A DNA stretch of 57,279 nt from Betaproteobacteria bacterium. GTDB lineage: Bacteria > Pseudomonadota > Gammaproteobacteria > Burkholderiales > UBA3065. The stretch is taken from the NCBI GenBank assembly GCA_009927815.1, contig RFMI01000139.1:1-57279 (forward strand), in the 5' to 3' direction. Shown here in pieces: positions 30,584 through 43,420 of the stretch (position 1 is the first letter of the stretch; the number at the start of each line of letters is the position of its first letter). A model generated the notes under the pieces. That model saw nothing but the letters and a program-made list of their open reading frames with translations, was not told where the DNA came from and searched no databases. A program made the translations under genes and the position numbers.

Positions 30584-32155
30584 ATGCCCTTCGAATCCGA
30601 GATCGCCCGTCGGCGTACTTTCGCCATCATCAGTCACCCGGACGCGGGCAAGACCACGCTCACTGAAAAGCTGCTCTGGTTTGGCGGCGCCATCCAGGTC
30701 GCCGGTGAAGTGCGCGCGCGCAAGGCCGCCCGCCATGCGACCTCCGACTGGATGGAGCTGGAGAAGCAGCGCGGCATCTCGGTGACCAGCTCGGTGATGC
30801 AGTTCCCCTACCGCGACGCCATCGTCAATCTGCTCGATACGCCGGGCCACCAGGACTTCTCCGAGGACACTTACCGCACGCTCACGGCCGTGGACTCGGC
30901 GGTGATGGTGATCGACTCGGTCAATGGCGTTGAGGCACAGACCATCAAACTGCTCGAGGTCTGCCGCCTGCGCGACACGCCCATCCTCACCTTCATCAAC
31001 AAGCTCGACCGCGAGGGCCGCGAGCCGATCGACCTGCTGGACGAGATCGAAAAGACCCTGGACATGCCCTGCGCGCCGATGACCTGGCCGATCGGCATGG
31101 GCAAGCGCTTCCGTGGCGTGTACCACCTCTACGACGACCGCATCTTCTTCTTCGACCCGCACGCCGAGAAGGGCACCTCGGAGGTCATCGAGGGCTTGGC
31201 TAACCCGCGGTTGGACGAGCTTATCGGCACGCAGGCGCAGGAGCTGCGCGACGAAATCGAGTTGGTGCGCGGCGCCTCGCACGCCTTCGAGAAGGACGCC
31301 TACCTCGCCGGCCAGCAGACGCCGGTGTTCTTTGGCAGCGCGGTCAACAACTTCGGCGTGCAAAGCCTGCTCGACGCCGTGGTCGACCTCTCGCCGCCAC
31401 CTCAGTCGCGGCCCACCAGCGCCCGTGAGGTGAATCCGGCCGAGAAGCCCTTCACCGGCTTCGTGTTCAAGATTCAGGCCAATATGGACCCGCGCCACCG
31501 CGACCGCATCGCTTTCGTGCGGGTGTGTTCCGGCCGCTTCGAGCGCGGCATGAAGCTCAAACAAGTCGGCAGTGACAAGCTGCTGGCGGTCAACAACGCC
31601 ATCACCTTTATGGCGCAAGACCGCAACACGACCGATGAGGCCTTCCCCGGCGACATCATCGGCATCCCCAATCACGGCACCATCAAGTTGGGCGACACCT
31701 TCAGCGAGGGCGAGGGCTTCCGCTTCACTGGGATCCCGAGTTTCGCGCCGGAGCTGTTCCGCCGCGCGCAGATTCGCAATCCGCTCAAGCTCAAGCAGCT
31801 GCACAAGGGCTTGCAACAGCTGGCGGAGGAGGGCGCGACCCAGCTATTCCGGCCGATCGCCAGCAACGACCTCATTCTCGGCGCGGTGGGCACGCTGCAG
31901 TTCGACGTCGTGGCGCATCGGCTCGAGCACGAATATGCGGTGGAATCGGTGTTTGAGGGCTGCACCTGGGCCACGGCGCGCTGGTTGCGCGGGCCGGACG
32001 CCGACATCAAGCAGCTGGTCGATAAGTCGCCGCAAAATATTGCACTGGATGGTGCCGGCGATTACGTCTACCTCGCACCCAATCGCGTCAACTTACAGAT
32101 GGCGCAGGAGAAGTTTCCCGGCATCACCTTCGCGGCGACGCGCGAGATCGCCTAG
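30584..32155 (+). CDS. prfC: Peptide chain release factor 3
   Basis: 523-aa ORF with [22 protein letters not shown] and DTPGHQDF GTPase motifs. The length is typical of RF3. Confidence 0.96.
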
Positions 32156-32158
32156 CGC

Positions 32159-33283
32159 TCAGAACAGCTCGATGCGCTCGCCGTGCAGCACGCCAATGTC
32201 GTTGCTGCCGGTCAGAGCGGCGCTGTGGTCGATGTGTTGGTGGACCATCACGTATTCCTTCTGCAGACGCGCCAGACGCATGGCGAAGGAGTCGCGATTC
32301 TCGGACGATTCGGGTGTTAAGCCGTCGGTTAGCTGCTGGCGCCAGGCTTCGATGTGCGCGGTGAGCTCGTCGAGTCCCTTGCCGATGGTCTCGAGCTGCT
32401 GGCGGGTGATGTCCTGGAACTGCATCTCACCCAGCGCGTCCGCGATGTCAGCGGACATCTCGTCGTTGCGAGTGCGCAGCAGGACGCCGAGCCCGTTAAG
32501 AAAGCCCAGAACGTCGTCCAACTCGCTGGCCAGCTTGTCCATATTCTCGACCGTCTCGTCAACGTTCAGCAGATCGCTCAGATGCTCGATGTCATCGGCC
32601 ATGTGCTTGATGTCGCTGCGAATCTGTGTGCTGAATCCGGCGATTCCGTCATTGACCCGCTGAGCGGCGGTCTCGGTCTCTAGCGCGAGTTTGCGCACCT
32701 CGTCGGCGACCACACTAAAGCTGCGACCGGCGTCTCCGGCCCGGGCCGCTTCAATCGCCGCGTTGAGCGCCAGCAGGTTGGTCTGCTTGGCGATGTTGCT
32801 AATCATCTGGATCAGCGGTGACAGCTCGCTCACGCCTTGCAGGAACTTGTCGATGCGGACCCGTTCGCGCTCGGCGCTCGCACCGGCGGCCGACTGGTAG
32901 CGGCGCAGATTTTCGAGTGTGTTACGGCTCTGGGCGATGTGGGTGTTGGCGCGTTCTGAGAATGCGATGGAATGCTGGTGGGTCTCGTCCACTTGTTGCG
33001 TCAGGGAGCGGTTGTGCTGATACAAGGCGTCGAGCCGCTGCATCAGGTTCATCGACGCTTCCTCGGTATTGCTGCTGATGGTGCTGATGTGACGCCGCAA
33101 GACAGCGTCGAACAGGCCGAACTCGGCCATGTCGCCAGCCAGCAGCGCGCTGACGTCGGGGGCTTGCGCTGGTGGTGCAATGGCCTCGGCGCGGCGAACG
33201 CGCTGGGCTTTGGCCATCCAACCCGCGGCAAAGCCGACGAGGACCGCCAGAGCTGCGACGATCACCAGGGTCGCCGTCATCAC
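32159..33283 (-). CDS. Methyl-accepting chemotaxis protein: single N-terminal TM anchor, no recognisable sensor domain
   Basis: 374-aa ORF with one hydrophobic helix ([21 protein letters not shown]), the MCP tip motif [37 protein letters not shown], and a C-terminal MQFQDITRQ motif. It is the last gene of the che operon and overlaps the cheY stop. Confidence 0.88.
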
Positions 33284-33645
33284 GCCCCCGGCACCACCTG
33301 TTTGATCACCTTGATCAGGTCCTGCCCCCCAACCGGCTTGACCAGCCAGCCGGTCGCGCCGCTCTGCTTGGCTTCGTCGCGTTTGCCTTGCTGCGACTCG
33401 GTGGTCAGCGCCAGGATAGGCGTGAAGCGCAGGATCGTGCGAGCCTTTTTGATGAACTCGATGCCGTTCATGTTCGGCATATTGATGTCGGTGATGATCA
33501 AGTCAGGCTTGAGCCCGGATTTGAGCTTGTCGAACGCGATCACTCCGTCGGTCGCGGTGTCGGTCTTGAATCCCGCCATGTCGAGGGTCTGTCGCAGGCT
33601 CATCAGCATGGTGGCCGAGTCATCCACCAGCAGCACGGTCTTCAT
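33280..33645 (-). CDS. cheY: CheY-like single-domain response regulator
   Basis: 121-aa receiver with LLVDDS, the phospho-acceptor context LIITDINMP, and a conserved K in WLVKP. Confidence 0.9.
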
Positions 33646-33652
33646 TGCAGGC

Positions 33653-33898
33653 TCACTCCTCGCGTTTGGATTGAACGGCGGCGAGGGTCTCGAGCAAGAA
33701 CCCTGGCGGCGGGACGGCGGATAGCCGCGGTCTGCAAGCCATCAGAACTTGCAACACCGCGGCGTGCAGGTGCTCGCAGGCTTGGAGGTCGGCACTGCCT
33801 TCGGGGTTTTGCATCATCCACGACAACAGGCCTTCGGCCTCGTCGACACTGCAGACGCCGCTGAACACGGCGGTGTCTTCACCAAACTCGATCGGCAT
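33653..33898 (-). CDS. Small STAS-like / anti-sigma-antagonist-like protein (81 aa) in the che operon
   Basis: An 81-aa ORF whose ATG overlaps the cheA stop (ATGA at 33896-33900), so it is translationally coupled. The STAS assignment rests on size, context and weak resemblance, and is tentative. Confidence 0.45.
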   Translation of the reverse strand: MPIEFGEDTAVFSGVCSVDEAEGLLSWMMQNPEGSADLQACEHLHAAVLQVLMACRPRLSAVPPPGFLLETLAAVQSKREE

Positions 33899-36621
33899 CA
33901 GAGCAGCTCCTTGAGATTGAGGACCATCAGCACCGAGCCATCGCCGAGTAAGGCGGTGCCGGCGTAGCCTCCCAATTCGCCGAGCACGCCCTCGAGCGGC
34001 TTGAGGATCAGGTCGAGGGTGGCGTCGAAGTCGTCAACGATCACGCCCACGTCCTGATCGCCGAGGCGAATCACCAGAACGGCCACCTCGCCGGCCTCGT
34101 TGGCGACCGGCTGCGCGGGGATGCGCAACAGATCGTTGAGCGCATACAGTGGCACGATGCGGCCGCGCAGCACGGTGGTGCGCTGCTGTTTGATCTGGTG
34201 GATGGCCTCGGCGGGGACCCGCACCGTCTCGACCACCATGTCCATCTGCACGCCGAACATCTGTTCCGCCGAGCGGATGATCATGACGTTGGTGACCGCC
34301 ATCGACAGTGGCAACGCGATGCGGATGCGCGTTCCGCGTCCCAGTTCGCTGCTGAGTTGCACCTGACCTTGGGCCCGCTCGATGGCGCTGCGCACCACGT
34401 CCATGCCAACGCCACGTCCCGATAGATCACTGATCTGCTCGGCGGTGGAGAGCCCGGCAGCGAATACCAGCTGCACCGCCTCGTGGTCGGTCATGGTGGC
34501 CGCGCGCGCTTCGTCGATCAGGCCGCGGTCGAGGGCCTTGGCCTTGATGCGTGCCGGGTCGATGCCACGACCGTCGTCGCCGATCTCGATGATGACGCGG
34601 TCGGCTTCCTGGAAGGCGGTGATGCGAATCAGGCCGATCTCGCGTTTGCCGGCGGCACGGCGCTCGTCGGGCGGCTCGAGGCCGTGGTCGAGACTATTGC
34701 GGACAATGTGGATGAGCGGGTCGGCCAGCGATTCGACGATGTTTTTGTCGGCCTCGGCGTCTTCACCCTCCATGTACAGCTCGACCTGTTTGCCAAGCTT
34801 GCGTGAGATGTCGCGCACCAGACGCGGGAATCGCTGGAAGATGCTGCCCACCGGCAGCATCCGCACTTGCATGATGGCGTCCTGCATCTCTTCCGCGATG
34901 CGGTTGATGACGCCGTACTGGGTTTTGATGTCGCGTGCGATCTCGCGCGGGTTGCTGCTGGTTTCGGCGCGGGCGGCCAAATAGGGTAGCGAGTTCTTGG
35001 CCACGACCATCTCGCCAATCAAGTCCATCAGCCGGTCGATCTTTTCCTGCGACACTTTGAGCACCTTGCTGGCGCCCGATTCGCTGGTGCCGGCCTCTGC
35101 CAGCAATTCGCTCCGCGCAAATCCCTCTGCCGCCAGCGGACGTAGAGCGGTGTCATCGGCAGAGGTCTTGGCCGCTGGCCCAGGCGTCTGCGCGCGCGGG
35201 TGTTCCGCCGTCGCGACTGGCACCGGCACCGGCGAGTGCACCGAGGCCGCAACGACCGCGGGCGGCGCGTCGCCAGTCCAGCCGTCGATGGCGCGCAGCA
35301 GACCCTCGATGTCAGCGCGCGCGGCGGTCTCGAGCACCGCGTTGGCGGCGTCGGGACGACCCTCGTAGCGGCAGATCGACGCCAGGACGCGGCCGACCGC
35401 CAACAAGCTGGTCTCAATCGGGTTGCTCTCGATGAGACGCCGCTGGCTTTGCAGCATCCGTTCGATCAGGTGCTGCTCTTCCTCTGACAGGCCGACCAGT
35501 CGACCTACAACCGCTTTTGACGGGCGCAGGGGCGTCGCCGGAGGGTCGACCAGGTCGCGCGGGGCTTGGGTGCCCTCGGCCATCTGGTTGAGTACGCGTG
35601 CCAAAGGGTCGCCACTGGCGGTCTTGAGTGACAGCTGCAGCGCTTCGTCGATGGCCTCGTGGCCGGTGCCGTGCGCGTTGGCCAAGCCCCGCAAGACCAT
35701 CGCGACGGAACGCCAGATGCCCTCGCTGCCTTCGCCTCGCGCTCGAGCCAGCACCTCGTACTGCGATCGTAGGATGCGCGCTGCGGCTGATTCGTCTTCT
35801 TCGCTGAGTCCGCGGTCGGCCAAGGTTGCGGCATCGCGGGCGGGTGTCCCGGTTGCCGGCGTTGCCAAGGGCTGTCCGGTGTTTGCCGCTACCGTGTCGA
35901 TCTCGACTTGATCGATGACGTAGCGAAAATGCTCCTGCAAAGCTTCGCGACTGGCCTCACACCAGCCCTCGATGGCGAGGTTGCAATCGTATGGGTCCAG
36001 CAAATCCAGTGCGGGCCAGGGTTGCACCGGTTCAACGGTGATCCGCTGCAGTCCGGGCGCTTGCAGAGCGTTGTAGAGCGGGTCTTCGCCTTTGAAAAAG
36101 CAGCCGCGTTCGGCGATGTAACGAAAGTGCATGCCACTGGTGGCGCCGGGCAGCGGCGCCTCGCCAGTTTCAGGCGGGTCTGCTGGCGCGAGGGCCGGCT
36201 CAGGGTCTGCCGCTATTGGGCTTTGCGACAGCGGACCGGCGCGCAGTGCGCGCAAAGTGACCGCGAGTTCGCGACCCGCCTCGCATAGGCGGGGGTCGAG
36301 TGCTTTGCCGGCGTCGATGTTGTCGAGCATCAGCGAGACGATGTCCATGCATTCCAGCAGGTGATCGGCGACCTCGGCGTCAAAGCCGCGAGTGCCGTCG
36401 CGCACCACATCGAGCAGGTCCTCGCCCGCGTGTACCAAGTGCGTGAACGCGCTGTATTCGGCGAACAGGCCGCTGTTGCCTTTGAGCGTGTGAACGGCGC
36501 GAAACAATTCGTCGATGGCCGCGCTGTCCCGCGGATCACGCTCCAGCGTCAGCAGGCCTTGGGCGATCGAATCGAGGAAGTCCCGCGATTCGATAACGAA
36601 CTGTTCGAGCAGCGGATTCAT
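33898..36621 (-). CDS. cheA: Chemotaxis histidine kinase CheA (907 aa; Hpt, long unassigned region, dimerisation, HATPase and CheW-like domains)
   Basis: The Hpt His lies in RAVHTLKGNSG (His44). The P3/P4 part has KVSQEKIDRLMDLIGEM, HIVRNSLDHG, DDGRGID and GRGVGMD. A C-terminal CheW-like domain is present. There is no fused receiver. Confidence 0.93.
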   Translation of the reverse strand: MNPLLEQFVIESRDFLDSIAQGLLTLERDPRDSAAIDELFRAVHTLKGNSGLFAEYSAFTHLVHAGEDLLDVVRDGTRGFDAEVADHLLECMDIVSLMLDNIDAGKALDPRLCEAGRELAVTLRALRAGPLSQSPIAADPEPALAPADPPETGEAPLPGATSGMHFRYIAERGCFFKGEDPLYNALQAPGLQRITVEPVQPWPALDLLDPYDCNLAIEGWCEASREALQEHFRYVIDQVEIDTVAANTGQPLATPATGTPARDAATLADRGLSEEDESAAARILRSQYEVLARARGEGSEGIWRSVAMVLRGLANAHGTGHEAIDEALQLSLKTASGDPLARVLNQMAEGTQAPRDLVDPPATPLRPSKAVVGRLVGLSEEEQHLIERMLQSQRRLIESNPIETSLLAVGRVLASICRYEGRPDAANAVLETAARADIEGLLRAIDGWTGDAPPAVVAASVHSPVPVPVATAEHPRAQTPGPAAKTSADDTALRPLAAEGFARSELLAEAGTSESGASKVLKVSQEKIDRLMDLIGEMVVAKNSLPYLAARAETSSNPREIARDIKTQYGVINRIAEEMQDAIMQVRMLPVGSIFQRFPRLVRDISRKLGKQVELYMEGEDAEADKNIVESLADPLIHIVRNSLDHGLEPPDERRAAGKREIGLIRITAFQEADRVIIEIGDDGRGIDPARIKAKALDRGLIDEARAATMTDHEAVQLVFAAGLSTAEQISDLSGRGVGMDVVRSAIERAQGQVQLSSELGRGTRIRIALPLSMAVTNVMIIRSAEQMFGVQMDMVVETVRVPAEAIHQIKQQRTTVLRGRIVPLYALNDLLRIPAQPVANEAGEVAVLVIRLGDQDVGVIVDDFDATLDLILKPLEGVLGELGGYAGTALLGDGSVLMVLNLKELL

Positions 36622-36622
36622 G

Positions 36623-36994
36623 TCAGGCGTGTTCCCCGAGCATCAAACGCACGCTGGTGGTCAGCTCGACTGGCCGTGCCGGCTTGATCAGGTAGAAGTT
36701 GGCGCCAGCGGCATACGCGCGGTCGGCGTCTTTGCTCTCCGATTCGGTGCTGACCATGATCGCCGGCGCTTGGGCCAGTTCAGTGCGTGAGCGCAGTTCG
36801 GCGATGAAGCGGTAGCCGTCCATTTTCGGCATGTTGATGTCGACGATGTAGAGGTCGTAAGGCGTCGACACCGCTTTTTCCAGGGCTTCAAGGCCGTTGA
36901 CCGCCTCATCCACCTCCAGCCCGCAATCCTCAAGGATCTTGCGGTGGTACATGCGCACTGTGGCGGCGTCGTCGATGATGAGAACGCGTTTCAT
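36623..36994 (-). CDS. cheY: CheY-like single-domain response regulator
   Basis: A 123-aa receiver starting at MKRVLIIDDAATVR, with DLYIVDINMPKMDG and YLIKP. Its start overlaps the cheR stop (ATGA). Confidence 0.9.
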   Translation of the reverse strand: MKRVLIIDDAATVRMYHRKILEDCGLEVDEAVNGLEALEKAVSTPYDLYIVDINMPKMDGYRFIAELRSRTELAQAPAIMVSTESESKDADRAYAAGANFYLIKPARPVELTTSVRLMLGEHA

Positions 36995-37857
36995 GCTGCT
37001 CCCCCCTGGAAGGCTTTTTGGTAAACGATCGCATCGTCGAACTTGCGGATGCGGAAAACACTGGAGATTCGGCTCATTGATTCGGAGTGGCCGAGGCAAA
37101 TGAATCCGCCCGGATTGAGGGCGTTGTAGAACACGTCGGCGGCCGCGCGACGCGAGGCGTCGTCGAAATAGATCAGCAGGTTGCGGCAGAAGATCAGGTC
37201 GAAGCGGTTGTAGGCGCGCGTGCTGAGAGTGTCGGACAGGTTGCACTGGGTGAATTCGACGGCTTGGCGCAAGTCGTCACTGATCTGCCAGTCGCCGGTG
37301 CGGGTCTTGCGGAAATACTTTTGCAGCAGCGTCGCGGGCAGGTTTTGTACCGAGCGTGCGCTGTAGATGCCTTGACGAGCCTGGTCGAGGATGCCGGTGT
37401 CGATATCCGATGAGATGATCTCGACGTCGAATTGGTGAATCCCCGGCCAGTGCTCAAGCAGGTAGATGCAGATCGAGTAGGGCTCTTCGCCCGACGAACT
37501 CGGGATCGACCAGATGCGGATGGGTTCGCGTCGCCCCTTGCGCTGAGCGAGTTCGGGCAGCAGGGCGTTGACCATGCATTTGAACTGGTATTCCTCGCGG
37601 AAAAAGTAGGTCTCGTTCACCGTCATCAGGTTGACGAGTTGCTGCAACTCATCACCGCGGGTGTCGAAGCGCAGATTTACGAAGTATTCGCGGAACGTTG
37701 CCACGCCGCTGGCAACCAGCCGCTCGACCAGCCGCTTGTCGACGAAGTAGCGTTTGCTCTCTTCGAAGTAGATGCCGGTCTTGCGGTAGAAGAACTCCCT
37801 GAACTTCAGAAAGTCCTCTTCGCTGATCGACGGTGCTGCTGCAGTCAATGTGTTCAC
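36991..37857 (-). CDS. cheR: Chemotaxis protein methyltransferase CheR
   Basis: The motifs NETYFFRE, IWSIPSSSGEEPYS and FCRNLLIYFD are present. GTG at 37857 gives a typical ~288 aa protein. The upstream ATG at 37968 would overlap the HEAT gene by about 100 nt. Confidence 0.9.
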   Translation of the reverse strand: MNTLTAAAPSISEEDFLKFREFFYRKTGIYFEESKRYFVDKRLVERLVASGVATFREYFVNLRFDTRGDELQQLVNLMTVNETYFFREEYQFKCMVNALLPELAQRKGRREPIRIWSIPSSSGEEPYSICIYLLEHWPGIHQFDVEIISSDIDTGILDQARQGIYSARSVQNLPATLLQKYFRKTRTGDWQISDDLRQAVEFTQCNLSDTLSTRAYNRFDLIFCRNLLIYFDDASRRAAADVFYNALNPGGFICLGHSESMSRISSVFRIRKFDDAIVYQKAFQGGAA

Positions 37858-37861
37858 GATG

Positions 37862-38476
37862 TCAGGCGGCGATCTTGTCAAGGGCGGCGGCCACCGCAAA
37901 TGTGATGAACGGCTCGTCGGCAAAGCGCACTTCCAGTCGCGCCAGCGGCACCCGGGCCCGGCTGTCACCCACTTCAGCCAGAAGGTCGACCGCGGTCGCG
38001 CAGACGTTGATGTGGGGGTCGGTCTCGATCACCGCGATCAGCCAGTCGACCACTTTGGGGTGCTTCAGCGATTCGAGAATGTTGACGGCGAAGATGCGCA
38101 CATCCGGATCGGGGTCGGCCAGCAGGGTCGGCATGTAGGGGGCAATGGCGTCTGGCTGCTCTTTGAGCAACTCGATGACGTCGTTGCGCAGACCGGCATC
38201 TTCGCTGCGCAGATAACCCATGACGCCCTGCACCACCTCGGGGCCGCCGGTGGTCGAGAGGCTGGACACGATCGCTTGGCGAACCGCGTAGTCCTCCTCG
38301 TCGGCCAATTGCGCCAACAGTTCGGCGATGGCGCCGCTGTCGCCTGCAAGCTCAATCGCTGCACTGCGCCGCGAGTCTGCATCGGGGCTGCTCAGTTGCA
38401 TGAACAAGACCGCTCGGCTGGGCCGGCCAGCCGGCTCCTCGATGACTTCAGGGGTGCTGCTGCGGACGAGTGCCAT
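37862..38476 (-). CDS. HEAT-repeat protein embedded in the che operon
   Basis: 204 aa from ATG 38476. Repeats of the type DPDPDVRIFAVNILESL, SEDAGLRNDVIELL and DEEDYAVRQAIVSSL are characteristic of HEAT/PBS-lyase-type repeats. Confidence 0.7.
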   Translation of the reverse strand: MALVRSSTPEVIEEPAGRPSRAVLFMQLSSPDADSRRSAAIELAGDSGAIAELLAQLADEEDYAVRQAIVSSLSTTGGPEVVQGVMGYLRSEDAGLRNDVIELLKEQPDAIAPYMPTLLADPDPDVRIFAVNILESLKHPKVVDWLIAVIETDPHINVCATAVDLLAEVGDSRARVPLARLEVRFADEPFITFAVAAALDKIAA

Positions 38477-38513: not shown

Positions 38514-39662
38514 TTAGTGAATAGCCCATTGGACGAGTTGTTCGGCGATTTCCTCGGCATCCAGAACCACGCCGGCGCCACCGCGTTTGATCAATTCCCC
38601 GGGCATGCCGAACACCACCGAAGAGCGTTCGGATTCGGCGATGGTGCGACCGCCGCGGCGATGGACCTCGACCATTGCGTCGGCACCGTCGTCGCCCATC
38701 CCGGTCAGCATCACGGTGATCAGACTGTTGGGCTGACAGTAGAGCAGCGCGCTCTCGACCATAGCCTGAACCGACGGGTGCCAGTTGTAGCGGCGGTCGG
38801 CGGGCTTGACGATGCCGTACAGCTTGCCGCCGCGATCACTGATCAGCAGGTCGGCTCCGCCTTGCGCGATGTAGATGGTCCCGACCTCAAGCGGCGTCGG
38901 TTGACTGATTTCGCGCACGTTCATCGCGCATTGACCGTCCAGACGGTTGGCGAAGGACGCGGTAAAGGCCATTGGCATGTGCTGAGCCACGACCACAGGC
39001 CACGGGAAATACACTGGCAGACGGGGCAAGATCGACTCGAGCGTACGCGGCCCGCCAGTCGATACGCCCACCAGCACGAGACCGTGTGATCGCGTTGCGG
39101 CAGCGGAGGCCGCGACCAGTCGCTGTGTTGTTGTAACCGTGGGGACTTTGCTTGCGGGTCGCCGGTCCGCTGGACGGACGCGGCTCTGTGTGGCTGGACT
39201 GCTTGTCCTCGCGTCGCCGTCGGCGCTGACTGGACTGGACCCCGAGCGCTCCGGCCGACCCGTCCGCGGGCGCACCTGCGCGGCCGTCCGCAGCTTCGTC
39301 AGCAAGTCTTCACGCACTTGGTTGATCGACAGCGAGATGGTGCCGTCCGGCTTGGCGACGTAATCCACGGCACCGAGGGCCATCGCTTCGAGTGTGGCGA
39401 GGGCGCCCTTTTCGGTCAGCGAGCTCACCATAATCACGGGCGTCGGACGTCGCGTCATGATGTGCGACAGGGCCGTCAGGCCGTCCATCTCCGGCATATT
39501 GATATCGAGCGTGATGACGTCCGGTCCGAACCGTTCGAGCTGCTCGAGCGCCTCTCGCCCGTTGCGTGCCGTCTCGATCTCGAAATCGGATTCGTCCGCC
39601 AGCATCGAGACCAGCTGTTTGCGCATTAGCGCGGAGTCATCGACGATCAGGACCCGGGGCAT
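38514..39662 (-). CDS. cheB: Protein-glutamate methylesterase CheB (receiver plus methylesterase)
   Basis: MPRVLIVDDSALMR and VITLDINMPEMDG form the receiver. A Pro/Ser/Arg-rich linker follows. The catalytic domain has GVSTGGP, AQHMP and GMGDDGA. Confidence 0.93.
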   Translation of the reverse strand: MPRVLIVDDSALMRKQLVSMLADESDFEIETARNGREALEQLERFGPDVITLDINMPEMDGLTALSHIMTRRPTPVIMVSSLTEKGALATLEAMALGAVDYVAKPDGTISLSINQVREDLLTKLRTAAQVRPRTGRPERSGSSPVSADGDARTSSPATQSRVRPADRRPASKVPTVTTTQRLVAASAAATRSHGLVLVGVSTGGPRTLESILPRLPVYFPWPVVVAQHMPMAFTASFANRLDGQCAMNVREISQPTPLEVGTIYIAQGGADLLISDRGGKLYGIVKPADRRYNWHPSVQAMVESALLYCQPNSLITVMLTGMGDDGADAMVEVHRRGGRTIAESERSSVVFGMPGELIKRGGAGVVLDAEEIAEQLVQWAIH

Positions 39663-39672
39663 GGGGAGGGTC

Positions 39673-41226
39673 TCAGGCGGCGATGTCTTGCAAGGCATCG
39701 ATCTCCTCGGCTTCCAGCAACTGGTCGGGCTCGATCATCATCACCAGCCGTTTGCTGGCCTGCAGATTGGCGACCCGACGTATCAACCGGCTTTGATCGG
39801 CCGACAGGCGTGGACTGTCCTCGATGGCGGCGTGGGGGATCTTCATCACCTCGGCCACCGAGTCGACGATGAAACCGGTGCGTGTGCCGTTGAGCAGGTA
39901 GACCATGATGCGTTGCCGGTCGTTGCGATCGATGCTGTCCAGGCCGAAACGCCGGCGCTGGTCGATCACCGCCAGAACCGTCCCGCGCAGATTGATCACG
40001 CCTTCGACGAACTCGGGCGACTTCGGCACCCGGGTCAAGGCTTCGGGCACCCGCACGATCTCTTGCACGGACTCGATCGGCACGCCGAACTCGGCGGCGC
40101 CCAGCCGAAACACCACCACTTGGGATTCGTCGGCGTTGCTGCCGTCCCTGTTGTCGATCTCTGCCACAGTCTGTGCCTCCTCAAGCGCGGACTCATGCGT
40201 CTCGTTGATGCTGTCGATGATCGATTCGGATAGCAGTCGGTCTGGCGCGATCACCGAGACCAGGCGTTTGCCATCGCCCAGGCGGCAGATGGCGGTGATG
40301 TCACCCTGTCCATCACGGGCCATGATCGGCGGCATCTCTTCAACACACTGGTTGGGTACACGCAAGACCTCGCTGACGCGGTCCATGACCAAACCCACCG
40401 ACACCGAATTGAGATTGACGACGACGATGCGGTCGGCGCTGGACAAGTCGCGCTGCGGGAGGTCGAACAGCTGCCGCAAGCTCACCAGCGGCAACAAGCG
40501 GTTGCGCAGGGTCATGATGCCGACCAGGGCGCGCGGAGCGTCAGGCACCTGGATCACGCGGTCTGGCGCCTGCACGATCTCCTGCACGGAGCTGATGGCG
40601 ATCGCGTATTCCTGGCTTTCGACCACAAAGCTGACCAGCTGGGTTTCGTCGGCAAGACCGTCGTCTTCGTCATCAAGCGCGGTGTGGTCGGCGTGCTGGC
40701 TGGTGAGGCTGCCAGCCGTGCCAACGGAGTGGTGCAGTTCGGCGAATGCCCGCTCCATCAAGCGGGCGAAGTCGACCAGCATCACCATGTCTTCGCCGGC
40801 ATTTTTGATCACGCCGCTGATCAGGTCACTGCGACCGGCGCCACTCAAACTCTCGGACGGCTCGAGTTGGTCGGGCTCAATCGATATGACGCTGGTGACG
40901 CTGTCAACGACAAAGCCCATCGGCGTGCCGAGATCGATGACCACGGCACGCGTCAGTTCATCGCCCTCGATATCGGGCAAACCAAAGATCTGCCGAAGAC
41001 TGACGATCGGCAGCACGTGGCCGCGCAGATTCGCCAGGCCCAGCAGGTGGCTCGGGGCCAGCGGCACGCGCATCGTGACCGGCACCCGGATGATCTCCTG
41101 CACAGGGGCCATGGGTGCGGCGAACACATCGCTGCCAACCTTGAAGGTCACATACTGATTGAGGTCTGCGGCGACCTCGTCGTCGGCATTGCTCGGGTCT
41201 TCGACGGCTGCGTTCAGATCGCTCAT
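39673..41226 (-). CDS. cheW: Triple-domain CheW scaffold protein (three tandem CheW-like domains)
   Basis: 517 aa with three copies of the CheW core. Residues ~23-158 have YVTFKVGSDVFAAPMAPVQEIIRVP...GLANLRGHVLPIVSL. Residues ~195-333 have LVSFVVESQEYAIAISSVQEIVQAP...GIMTLRNRLLPLVSL. Residues ~368-505 have VVVFRLGAAEFGVPIESVQEIVRVP...GVINLRGTVLAVID. Confidence 0.88.
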   Translation of the reverse strand: MSDLNAAVEDPSNADDEVAADLNQYVTFKVGSDVFAAPMAPVQEIIRVPVTMRVPLAPSHLLGLANLRGHVLPIVSLRQIFGLPDIEGDELTRAVVIDLGTPMGFVVDSVTSVISIEPDQLEPSESLSGAGRSDLISGVIKNAGEDMVMLVDFARLMERAFAELHHSVGTAGSLTSQHADHTALDDEDDGLADETQLVSFVVESQEYAIAISSVQEIVQAPDRVIQVPDAPRALVGIMTLRNRLLPLVSLRQLFDLPQRDLSSADRIVVVNLNSVSVGLVMDRVSEVLRVPNQCVEEMPPIMARDGQGDITAICRLGDGKRLVSVIAPDRLLSESIIDSINETHESALEEAQTVAEIDNRDGSNADESQVVVFRLGAAEFGVPIESVQEIVRVPEALTRVPKSPEFVEGVINLRGTVLAVIDQRRRFGLDSIDRNDRQRIMVYLLNGTRTGFIVDSVAEVMKIPHAAIEDSPRLSADQSRLIRRVANLQASKRLVMMIEPDQLLEAEEIDALQDIAA

Positions 41227-41246: not shown

Positions 41247-43178
41247 TCAGGCGCTTTGCAGTTCGTCAGCCAGCGAGGCGATCTCTTCGATCGCTGCCGA
41301 CAGCTCTTCGGCACCTTGCGACTGTTGCTTGGCCGCGGTCGCTGCTTCGCCTGCGGCTTGCTCGGCTTCGGCGGCGGCAGAGCTGACCTGCTCGACGCCA
41401 ACCTTGACCTGCGCCACCTGCGCCGCGACTTGCTCGGCGAGTTTGGTCACCTGTTCGCCGCCAGCCGCGATCTCGTTGACGTCGGCTTCCATTTGCAGCA
41501 AAGCGGCGGTGATGCCCTTTGATTTCTCGACCTCGACCAGCGCGGCCGACGCGATTTCTTCGAGGTCGTGGCGAACGGCGGCGATCTGATCCTGCACGCC
41601 TTTGACCATGTCCTTGATGCGGTCGGCGTTCTCGGCCGAGTCGTGGGCCAGATTGCGGATGTCGGTGGCCACCACGACAAAGCCCTTGCCGAACTCGCCA
41701 GCCCGCGCTGCCTCGATGGCACCGTTGACCGCCAGCATATTGGTCTGGATCGACACCGAGGTGATGGCGTCAACGATCTTGTCGATGCGGCGGCTCACCA
41801 GCTCGAGTTCCTTGATTTGAACCAGGCTGCTGCGGGTGCCCTCAACCGAAGACCGGATGCCCTTCACCAGTGAATCGACGGCCGACTTGTTGCTGAGCAC
41901 GGCGGCCTGAATGGCGCGCGATTTTTCCAGCGCGAGGCCGGCTCGCTGCAGTGAGATCTTGACGCCGTCTTCGATCTGCGCGACCGCTGCGGCAGACTCA
42001 TGGCAGGCGGCAGCCTGGGTCTGGGCGCCACGGCGGATCTCGTCGATGGCGACCAGGATCTGGCTCGATGAGCGGTTGATTTCTTGCACCGCAGACGACA
42101 ACTCTTCGGCGGCCGAGGCCACGTCTTCGGCACTCTTGCTGATATTGCTGCTGTTCTTCAGGTCGTCGGCGATGTCCGACAGGCTGCCAGCGGTGGTTTC
42201 GCATTCGGCCAGTGCCTGCGATTGTTCGGCCACGGTTTTGGCGGACTCTTCACAGGCTGAGGACTGTTGTTCGGCGGCTGCGGCGATTGATTCGGCGCCA
42301 CGCATGGCCTGAATCGTGGCGGCGGACGCCTGTTGGGCCGCTGCGGAGATCTCGGTAGCGCCAACGACAACGTCGCCGGCATTCACCGCGATTTCGGTCA
42401 GTTGAGTGGTGATCACTTTGCCGCGCTCCACTTCAGCCTGAACCGCTTGAGCCGACTGGTTGATGCCGGTCGAGATGACCTGCACCTCGGACTGAATCTG
42501 CGACACCAGCTGCTGGATCTCGCCGGCACTTTTTTCTGAGGTTTCGGCGAGCGTGCGCACTTCATCGGCCACTACGGCGAACCCCTTGCCGTGTTTGCCG
42601 GCGCGGGCCGCTTCGATGGCAGCGTTGAGCGCCAGCAAGTTGGTTTGGTCGGCGATTCGCGCCACGGCCTTGACGATGTCGCTGATGTTGGACGCCTGCC
42701 GCTCAAGCTCAGCGACCATCTCCACCGAAGCAATTTGGCGTTGCGCAGCGATGTTGACGTTGCCGACAGATACGGTGACGTCGGTCTGGATGGTCGAGGC
42801 GATGCTCTGCATGTTGGTGGCGCGTGTCTGGGCCAGTTGCGCAGCCTGCATTTGTTGGGTGATCGCAGACGACATCGCCGTGACCGCCGCCAGAGATTGC
42901 TGCGCGGCGCCCGAGGCCTCTTGGGCGCCCGCCGCTATGGTGTCGGACGCGCGGCGCAACTCTTCGGACGCGCTGGCGGCTTCATTGATGCCGGAGGCGA
43001 GCTCCGCCGAGGCGGCCGCGATGCGTTCGGCGGCCTGTTGTTGCTTGGCCATGGTGCGTGCGCGGCGGCGCAGGGCCTCGGCATCACGGTTGGAGGCCGC
43101 TGGGGATGGCGACGCCCCAGTCGGCGGAAAATCGTCCAAAGACTGACTGTCGGTGCGCGATTTTTTGACCAGAGCCAT
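41247..43178 (-). CDS. Soluble MCP with two tandem signalling (hairpin-tip) domains, DosM-like
   Basis: 643 aa with no hydrophobic TM segment and no sensor domain. It has two MCP tip motifs exactly 300 residues apart: [38 protein letters not shown] (res ~175-212) and [37 protein letters not shown] (res ~476-512). Confidence 0.88.
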
Positions 43179-43390
43179 GAAACGGAGTCCCCTCGATAAG
43201 GTTCGCGAATCTAGCCCATGTGTTTATCGGGCTAAGCCATTTTATACATAGTCTACGCCAAAGGGCGAGTCGACGGCGTGCGGCGATTGTGCAATATCTT
43301 TTTACGCAACAGGCGATCTACGACTAGAGAACTCGCTAAACAGTTGTCCGTTTCTGCCCTCACCGTCCAGATGGCGGCGTTTGACGGGGG

Positions 43391-43420
43391 CAAAAACAAA
43401 GCCCGGCATGACCGGGCTTG
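43391..43420 (-). terminator. Rho-independent terminator downstream of rho
   Basis: On the minus strand the sequence reads AAGCCCGG-TCATG-CCGGGCTT followed by TGTTTTTG. It starts about 22 nt after the rho stop codon and insulates rho from the che operon promoter region. Confidence 0.75.

Follow-up and report, generated by a model that had tools for sequence, protein, structure and literature searches.

The window, by which we mean the whole stretch of 57,279 nucleotides that was analysed, contains on its minus strand an operon of ten genes in the order DosM-CheW3-CheB-HEAT-CheR-CheY-CheA-small ORF-CheY-MCP. The dosM-like gene comes first (41247..43178, minus strand, like the other operon features given below) and encodes a soluble MCP of 643 amino acids with a double signalling domain, as judged from the open reading frame, two MCPsignal matches and the recovery of homologues that match it over the full length with 63-80% identity. 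The ORF starts with an ATG, and this start is supported by the sequence comparison, as the N-terminal residues MALVKK are conserved in the homologues. The amino acids Ala, Ser, Glu and Gln are abundant in the protein. Since no 19-residue Kyte-Doolittle window exceeds 1.25, which is the highest value reached, the protein has no TM helix. Pfam recognized MCPsignal (PF00015) twice, and neither Pfam nor NCBIfam recognized a sensor domain or any other domain. The matches in NCBIfam, which lacks a DosM-specific model, were to ordinary MCP models and all fell far under the cut-offs. This agrees with the sequence-only reading, a note made beforehand from the letters of the DNA, in which a soluble protein with neither a TM helix nor a sensor domain had been described.

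When the two parts of the protein were scanned singly, residues 1-342 scored 117.7 bits and residues 343-643 scored 98.2 bits against MCPsignal, at a gathering cut-off of 34.6 bits, so the half that contains the second tip also scores as an MCP signal domain. The QTN motifs are present at residues 178-180 and 478-480, where they had been placed earlier, and each opens a canonical tip of 23 amino acids. Tip 1 (residues 178-200; 42579..42647) is defined by its motif and its conservation across 40 homologues, and tip 2 (residues 478-500; 41679..41747) by its motif and the MCPsignal score of that half. These exact coding positions lie within the approximate ranges that had been given for the two tips.

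Directly downstream of the dosM-like gene lies cheW3 (39673..41226), which encodes three CheW domains in one polypeptide of 517 amino acids (Pfam CheW in 3 stretches, 319 bits). It is followed by cheB (38514..39698; REC and methylesterase domains by Pfam), for which the ATG at 39662 is probably the true one among the candidate starts, and by a gene for a HEAT-repeat protein that starts at 38476 (37862..38476; Pfam HEAT_2 and a weak NblB-like NCBIfam match) and separates cheB from cheR. The cheR gene (36991..37857; Pfam CheR and CheR_N) has a probable GTG start at 37857, and the ATG of the first cheY (36623..36994; Pfam Response_reg) at 36994 is preceded by a GGGGGGAG motif. The cheA gene (33898..36621) encodes 907 amino acids with Hpt, dimerisation, HATPase and CheW-like P5 domains according to Pfam, which recognized nothing in the ~420 residues between the Hpt (4-93) and the dimerisation domain (518-586). 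An ORF of 81 amino acids (33653..33898), the ATG of which overlaps the cheA stop codon, gave no match in Pfam or NCBIfam. The operon continues with the second cheY (33280..33645; Pfam Response_reg) and ends with a gene for an MCP of 374 amino acids (32159..33283; Pfam MCPsignal, 99 bits) that has an N-terminal hydrophobic segment by hydropathy. The convergent prfC (30584-32155) closes the operon downstream. At the other end, a terminator-like hairpin (43399..43419, minus strand) follows rho and parts it from the dosM operon. A scan for the sigma-70 consensus within the 220 nucleotides between the rho terminator and dosM gave no match. The sequence GCCCGATAA at 43224-43232 (minus strand), upstream of dosM, resembles a sigma-28 -10 box, with no TAAA at the usual distance.

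Internal repeat, predicted structure and conserved segments

The two halves of the protein align without gaps (residues 48-325 against 348-625, 32% identity, E 4e-51) and are shifted by exactly 300 residues against each other, which corroborates the exact 300-residue period that had been proposed. In a crude scan of a/d positions, the heptad register likewise recurs at an offset of 300. At the DNA level, 47.6% of the nucleotides agree when the halves are compared in register (40% at third codon positions), identical runs reach at most 9 nucleotides, and the only stretch that blastn could detect between them comprises 82 nucleotides (78%) that cover the tip motif in its N-terminal part. Because the DNA of the halves has diverged to this extent, the repeat is not an assembly artefact, and the earlier view of an old duplication was right on this point. 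On basis of the alignment and the structure models described below, the first repeat, or hairpin 1, comprises residues 44-343 (42150..43049) and the second, or hairpin 2, residues 344-643 (41250..42149).

An AF2 model of the full-length protein, built on an alignment of 40 sequences, had a mean pLDDT of 87.5 and a pTM of 0.63, with helices at residues 26-192, 194-342 and 346-642. The pLDDT dips at residues ~195, ~345 and ~495, thus every 150 residues. An N-terminal tail (residues 1-28; 43095..43178) is predicted to be disordered, with a pLDDT below 50 and low conservation of residues 11-30, and the helix is predicted to begin at residue 26. According to DSSP, residues 343-345 (SSN; 42144..42152), within the conserved element LKNS..KSAE and at one of the pLDDT dips, constitute the sole helix break between the two hairpins and hence the predicted inter-hairpin junction. 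A Foldseek search with the full-length model recovered MCP cytoplasmic hairpins over ~300 columns, the equivalent of one hairpin.

Since the second tip of the full-length model is not marked by a break in DSSP, residues 344-643 were modelled alone, on an alignment of 10 sequences from several phyla. The resulting model (pLDDT 91.9) is an antiparallel hairpin with helices at 3-149 and 151-299 in its own numbering, so that the AF2 models together contain four helices of ~148 residues and the hairpin arms measure ~147-149 residues. Hairpin 2 superposed on the crystal structure of TM1143 of T. maritima (PDB 2ch7, chain A) over 298 columns at 3.8 Å (TM 0.81) and on models of McpB and YvaQ of B. subtilis at 2.5-3.1 Å (TM 0.86-0.89). 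The comparison with the shorter, 36H receptor Tsr was poor (TM 0.41). TM1143 and McpB, which we take to be of the 44H class (Alexander and Zhulin 2007), are thus matched over their whole cytoplasmic hairpin (297-298 columns, TM 0.81-0.89); these two receptors carry a single hairpin on a membrane or sensor module, whereas the DosM-like protein consists of two hairpins head to tail and nothing else. The antiparallel hairpins that the sequence-only reading expected are therefore supported by the structure prediction, with hairpin 2 superposing on 44H receptors at 2.5-3.8 Å. Considering the modelled arm length and these superpositions, the hairpins would be of the 44H length type. A direct phmmer comparison with TM1143 yielded gapped alignments, in which the gaps are of uncertain meaning given the low complexity of the coiled coil.

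In a conservation profile made from 40 DosM homologues, conservation was highest at both tips, the junction, the N-terminal helix (residues 31-52) and the C-terminus (residues 621-643). Tip 1 had a mean conservation of 0.98-1.00, with every residue except 195 invariant, and tip 2 with its flanks (residues 461-530) equalled it at 0.91-1.00. Around the junction, the residues L340, K341, S343, K348, S349, A350 and E351 are invariant. The N-terminal helix (residues 26-47) is basic, with a net charge of +4, and the C-terminus is acidic, with a net charge of -6, which hints, speculatively, at a clasp in the middle of the rod that the two hairpins would form. Near the junction lies also Cys326, in the sequence ALAECE (42201-42203, minus strand); among 40 close homologues, at least 90% have this cysteine, the equivalent of which is missing from the Alteromonas homologue.

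The protein contains 7 matches to the methylation consensus [ASTG][ASTG]xx[EQ][EQ]xx[ASTG][ASTG], as compared to 0.63 +/- 0.81 in shuffled sequences, and none of 2000 shuffles reached 7. The search for Glu/Gln pairs of the methylation type in each half, which had been suggested beforehand, turned up conserved pairs in both: the pairs 86/87, 93/94, 303-305, 358/359 and 618/619 are conserved across the 40 homologues and are distributed over both hairpins. To judge from the motifs, and with cheR and cheB being part of the operon, covalent adaptation of DosM is probable in both hairpins.

Relatives and the history of the duplication

A homologue search with the DosM-like protein of the window gave at least 7995 matches, the best 120 of which were looked at. 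These 120 are full-length proteins with 63-99% identity, mostly of 636-644 amino acids, and come from Gamma-, Beta- and Deltaproteobacteria. The closest named relatives among the matches listed belong to MAGs of uncultured Burkholderiales/Betaproteobacteria (80% identity). Thiocystis violascens has a full-length homologue with 66% identity (P0028) and Roseateles depolymerans one with 64% identity (L010). A scan of genomes extended the set of full-length relatives, at 41-64% identity, to Acidobacteriota, Bacillota, Alphaproteobacteria and Alteromonas, besides Roseateles depolymerans; past the best 17 loci, the matches listed were mostly ordinary Bacillota MCPs. A multi-CheW gene that matches the triple CheW of the window follows the dosM-like gene in 14 of these 17 loci. 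Within the order to which the window belongs, an orthologue at E <= 1e-100 was found in 7 of 201 genomes, including 4 of the 5 genomes of its own genus, and this patchy distribution matches the sporadic distribution that has already been published.

VC1403, the DosM of Vibrio cholerae, was not among the matches listed in the homologue search, in the genome scan or in a second search that was seeded with the Alteromonas confluentis homologue, which is 44% identical to the window protein. The matches listed in that second search included Alteromonadaceae and others and no Vibrio. A Salinimonas protein is 84% identical to the same Alteromonas confluentis homologue and is connected to the window protein in this roundabout way only.

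All 114 close homologues with two matches to the strict tip motif have their tips 300 residues apart, and the same spacing was found in nine distant loci from Acidobacteriota, Bacillota and Pseudomonadota, down to 41% identity. A DosM-like protein of 746 amino acids in a Denitrovibrio sp. MAG (L015:4001-6220), with an insert of 102 residues and tips 402 apart, is the only exception seen.

In a maximum-likelihood tree of the first and second halves of nine proteins, the first halves and the second halves formed two separate clades (100/100 support). Given this separation, the duplication must be placed once, before the family spread across phyla; as read from the sequences, there is one ancient duplication, and each half has been its own lineage since. 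In the protein of Firmicutes bacterium UBA3570 (L017) the second tip is near to the tip-1 type, yet its second half groups with the other second halves.

Assignment to the F9 class and rival explanations

The F9 chemosensory class has as its signature components CheW3 and DosM, the latter with two tandem signalling domains; full clusters were reported in 64 of 2781 species and partial clusters in 8, and DosM was catalogued in 72 species (PMC9321776). According to the same study, the F9 clusters have spread by horizontal transfer, and 98% of the DosM homologues have nothing besides the two signalling domains, neither a TM nor a sensory domain (PMC9321776). The order [DosM W3 B. R Y A. Y M] is listed for V. 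cholerae, V. tritonius, Thiocystis violascens, Allochromatium, Thermochromatium, Methylomicrobium and others (PMC9321776 Table S6). The operon in the window has the identical order, and its HEAT-repeat protein and 81-residue ORF fill the two unnamed positions ('.'), the former being the unnamed gene that F9 operons conserve and the latter lying between A and Y. In V. cholerae, the DosM of cluster I is VC1403, or Mlp14 (Briegel et al. 2016, as cited in PMC7534058 and PMC9321776). It has been classed as 44H (PMC7534058 Table S1), is required for a double-layered cytoplasmic array, in which it occupies every other trimer of dimers, and was described on basis of cryo-ET and model fitting as an extended rod that has signalling domains at both ends (PMC7534058). 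The F9 system of V. cholerae has no known phenotype (PMC7534058).

The window protein shares with V. cholerae DosM the tandem MCP signalling domains, the lack of a TM or sensor segment, the adjoining triple-CheW gene and the operon order, and the DosM-like identity that the sequence-only reading had assigned to it is borne out by these features. It differs in that the host is of another lineage, with a genome of only ~1.8 Mb. The connection to VC1403 runs via the 64-66% identity to the proteins of two species on the published DosM list. Like these homologues, of Thiocystis violascens and Roseateles depolymerans (635-642 amino acids), the window protein is full-length and has a tip spacing of 300, and nothing structural sets it apart from the published homologues of Thiocystis violascens, Roseateles depolymerans and Salinimonas lutimaris. 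Both the window protein, as a DosM, and its operon, as an F9 cluster, are therefore typical of a family that has already been described.

The note's remark that such receptors are barely studied outside Vibrio holds for their structure; it does not hold for the family as a whole, which has been catalogued in 72 species and for which deletion phenotypes were reported in Rhodospirillum centenum (PMC9321776, PMC2890560). The Che2 cluster of that organism is listed as F9 (PMC9321776 Table S6); it has a tripartite CheW and controls flagellum biosynthesis, and deletion of mcp2 resulted in hyperflagellated cells (PMC2890560). The cluster that encodes Mcp2 shares the R Y A order with the operon in the window. 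The Che2 CheA has a receiver domain, whereas Pfam recognized none in the CheA of the window.

Considering all of this, we regard it as very probable that the window gene is a DosM orthologue of the F9 class, with two 44H-type hairpins that form a rod joining two array layers. The chain would begin with a short disordered tail and go on with two antiparallel coiled-coil hairpins of 300 residues each, with three non-helical residues between them, and each hairpin is predicted to end in a canonical tip that binds the kinase and CheW. By homology with the cryo-ET data on V. cholerae, the homodimer would be a rod, its two tips at opposite ends and each plugged into a baseplate made of the CheA and triple CheW of the operon, and DosM would in this way fasten one layer of a purely cytoplasmic receptor array to the other. 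Sensory input would come from other receptors, such as the 374-residue MCP of the operon or others among the 12 further MCP genes of the genome.

An extended rod is not the only arrangement that can be imagined. The hairpins could fold back on each other, for instance side by side as a thicker bundle, in which case the protein would be part of an array with a single layer or would bring both tips to one baseplate. The three-residue helix break in the AF2 model lies right between the hairpins and could serve as a hinge, and an extended rod of two hairpins with 150-residue arms would measure ~44 nm from tip to tip (an estimate at ~0.148 nm per residue), which disagrees with, and exceeds, the baseplate spacing of 35 nm that was reported for V. 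cholerae (PMC7534058). Nevertheless, we consider such a fold-back improbable: in V. cholerae, cryo-ET and model fitting gave an extended rod whose two ends each bear a signalling domain (PMC7534058), the most conserved segments include the N-terminal helix (residues 31-52), the C-terminus (residues 621-643) and the junction, and the spacing of 300 residues is fixed across phyla. The conserved junction and termini together with the fixed spacing fit a strut of which the length is critical. Less probable still is an ordinary single-layer soluble receptor for flagellar chemotaxis in which the second signalling domain is a spare, degenerate copy. The second half indeed scores lower than the first (98 versus 118 bits), but the conservation of residues 461-530 (0.91-1.00) matches that of tip 1, tip 2 retains the full 12-residue turn, hairpin 2 models as a complete hairpin of the 44H type, and the second half has persisted as a separate clade from a time before the divergence of the phyla.

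The double domain could, finally, have been an artefact, either a tandem repeat collapsed during assembly or a recent fusion of adjacent MCP genes through the loss of a stop codon. Apart from the repeat itself nothing speaks in favour of this, and its probability is next to nil, as the halves share only 32% of their residues and 47.6% of their nucleotides, the same architecture and spacing of 300 occur in more than 100 independent protein clusters from several phyla, and the tree shows the first halves as one monophyletic group and the second halves as another. Either kind of artefact is thus refuted by the divergence of the halves, the spacing in 114 of 114 homologues, the distant loci and the tree of the half clades.

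For DosM as a rod between two array layers, one may ask whether it does more than hold them at a distance. Because methylation-type pairs occur in both hairpins, the tip spacing is fixed at 300 residues and there appears to be a conserved assembly in the middle of the rod, which would comprise the basic N-terminal helix, the LKNS..KSAE junction and the acidic C-terminus, DosM might be an adapting transducer that couples both baseplates mechanically, rather than a passive strut. We put this forward tentatively, as a rather unlikely option. If true, the mid-rod assembly could lock the hairpins in a collinear position and relay conformational signals from layer to layer.

As the F9 family has already been catalogued in 72 species, one more operon matters little on its own. 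The regularities measured here across the family, namely the invariant tip spacing of 300 residues, the single ancient duplication with separate lineages for the two halves and the occurrence of conserved methylation-type sites in either hairpin, could be of use to structural studies of what holds cytoplasmic arrays together.

The source of the window is probably an uncultured betaproteobacterium with a small genome (~1.8 Mb). The assembled genome of ~1.76 Mb is 94% complete and encodes 13 MCPs, DosM included, and four CheA paralogues (contigs C1, C67, C104 and C48). The three further CheA paralogues and the 12 other MCP genes fit the published rule that F9 systems rarely stand alone in a genome. 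A C-terminal DWEEF pentapeptide, of the CheR-tether type, is present in three of the MCPs, all of them encoded on contig C67.
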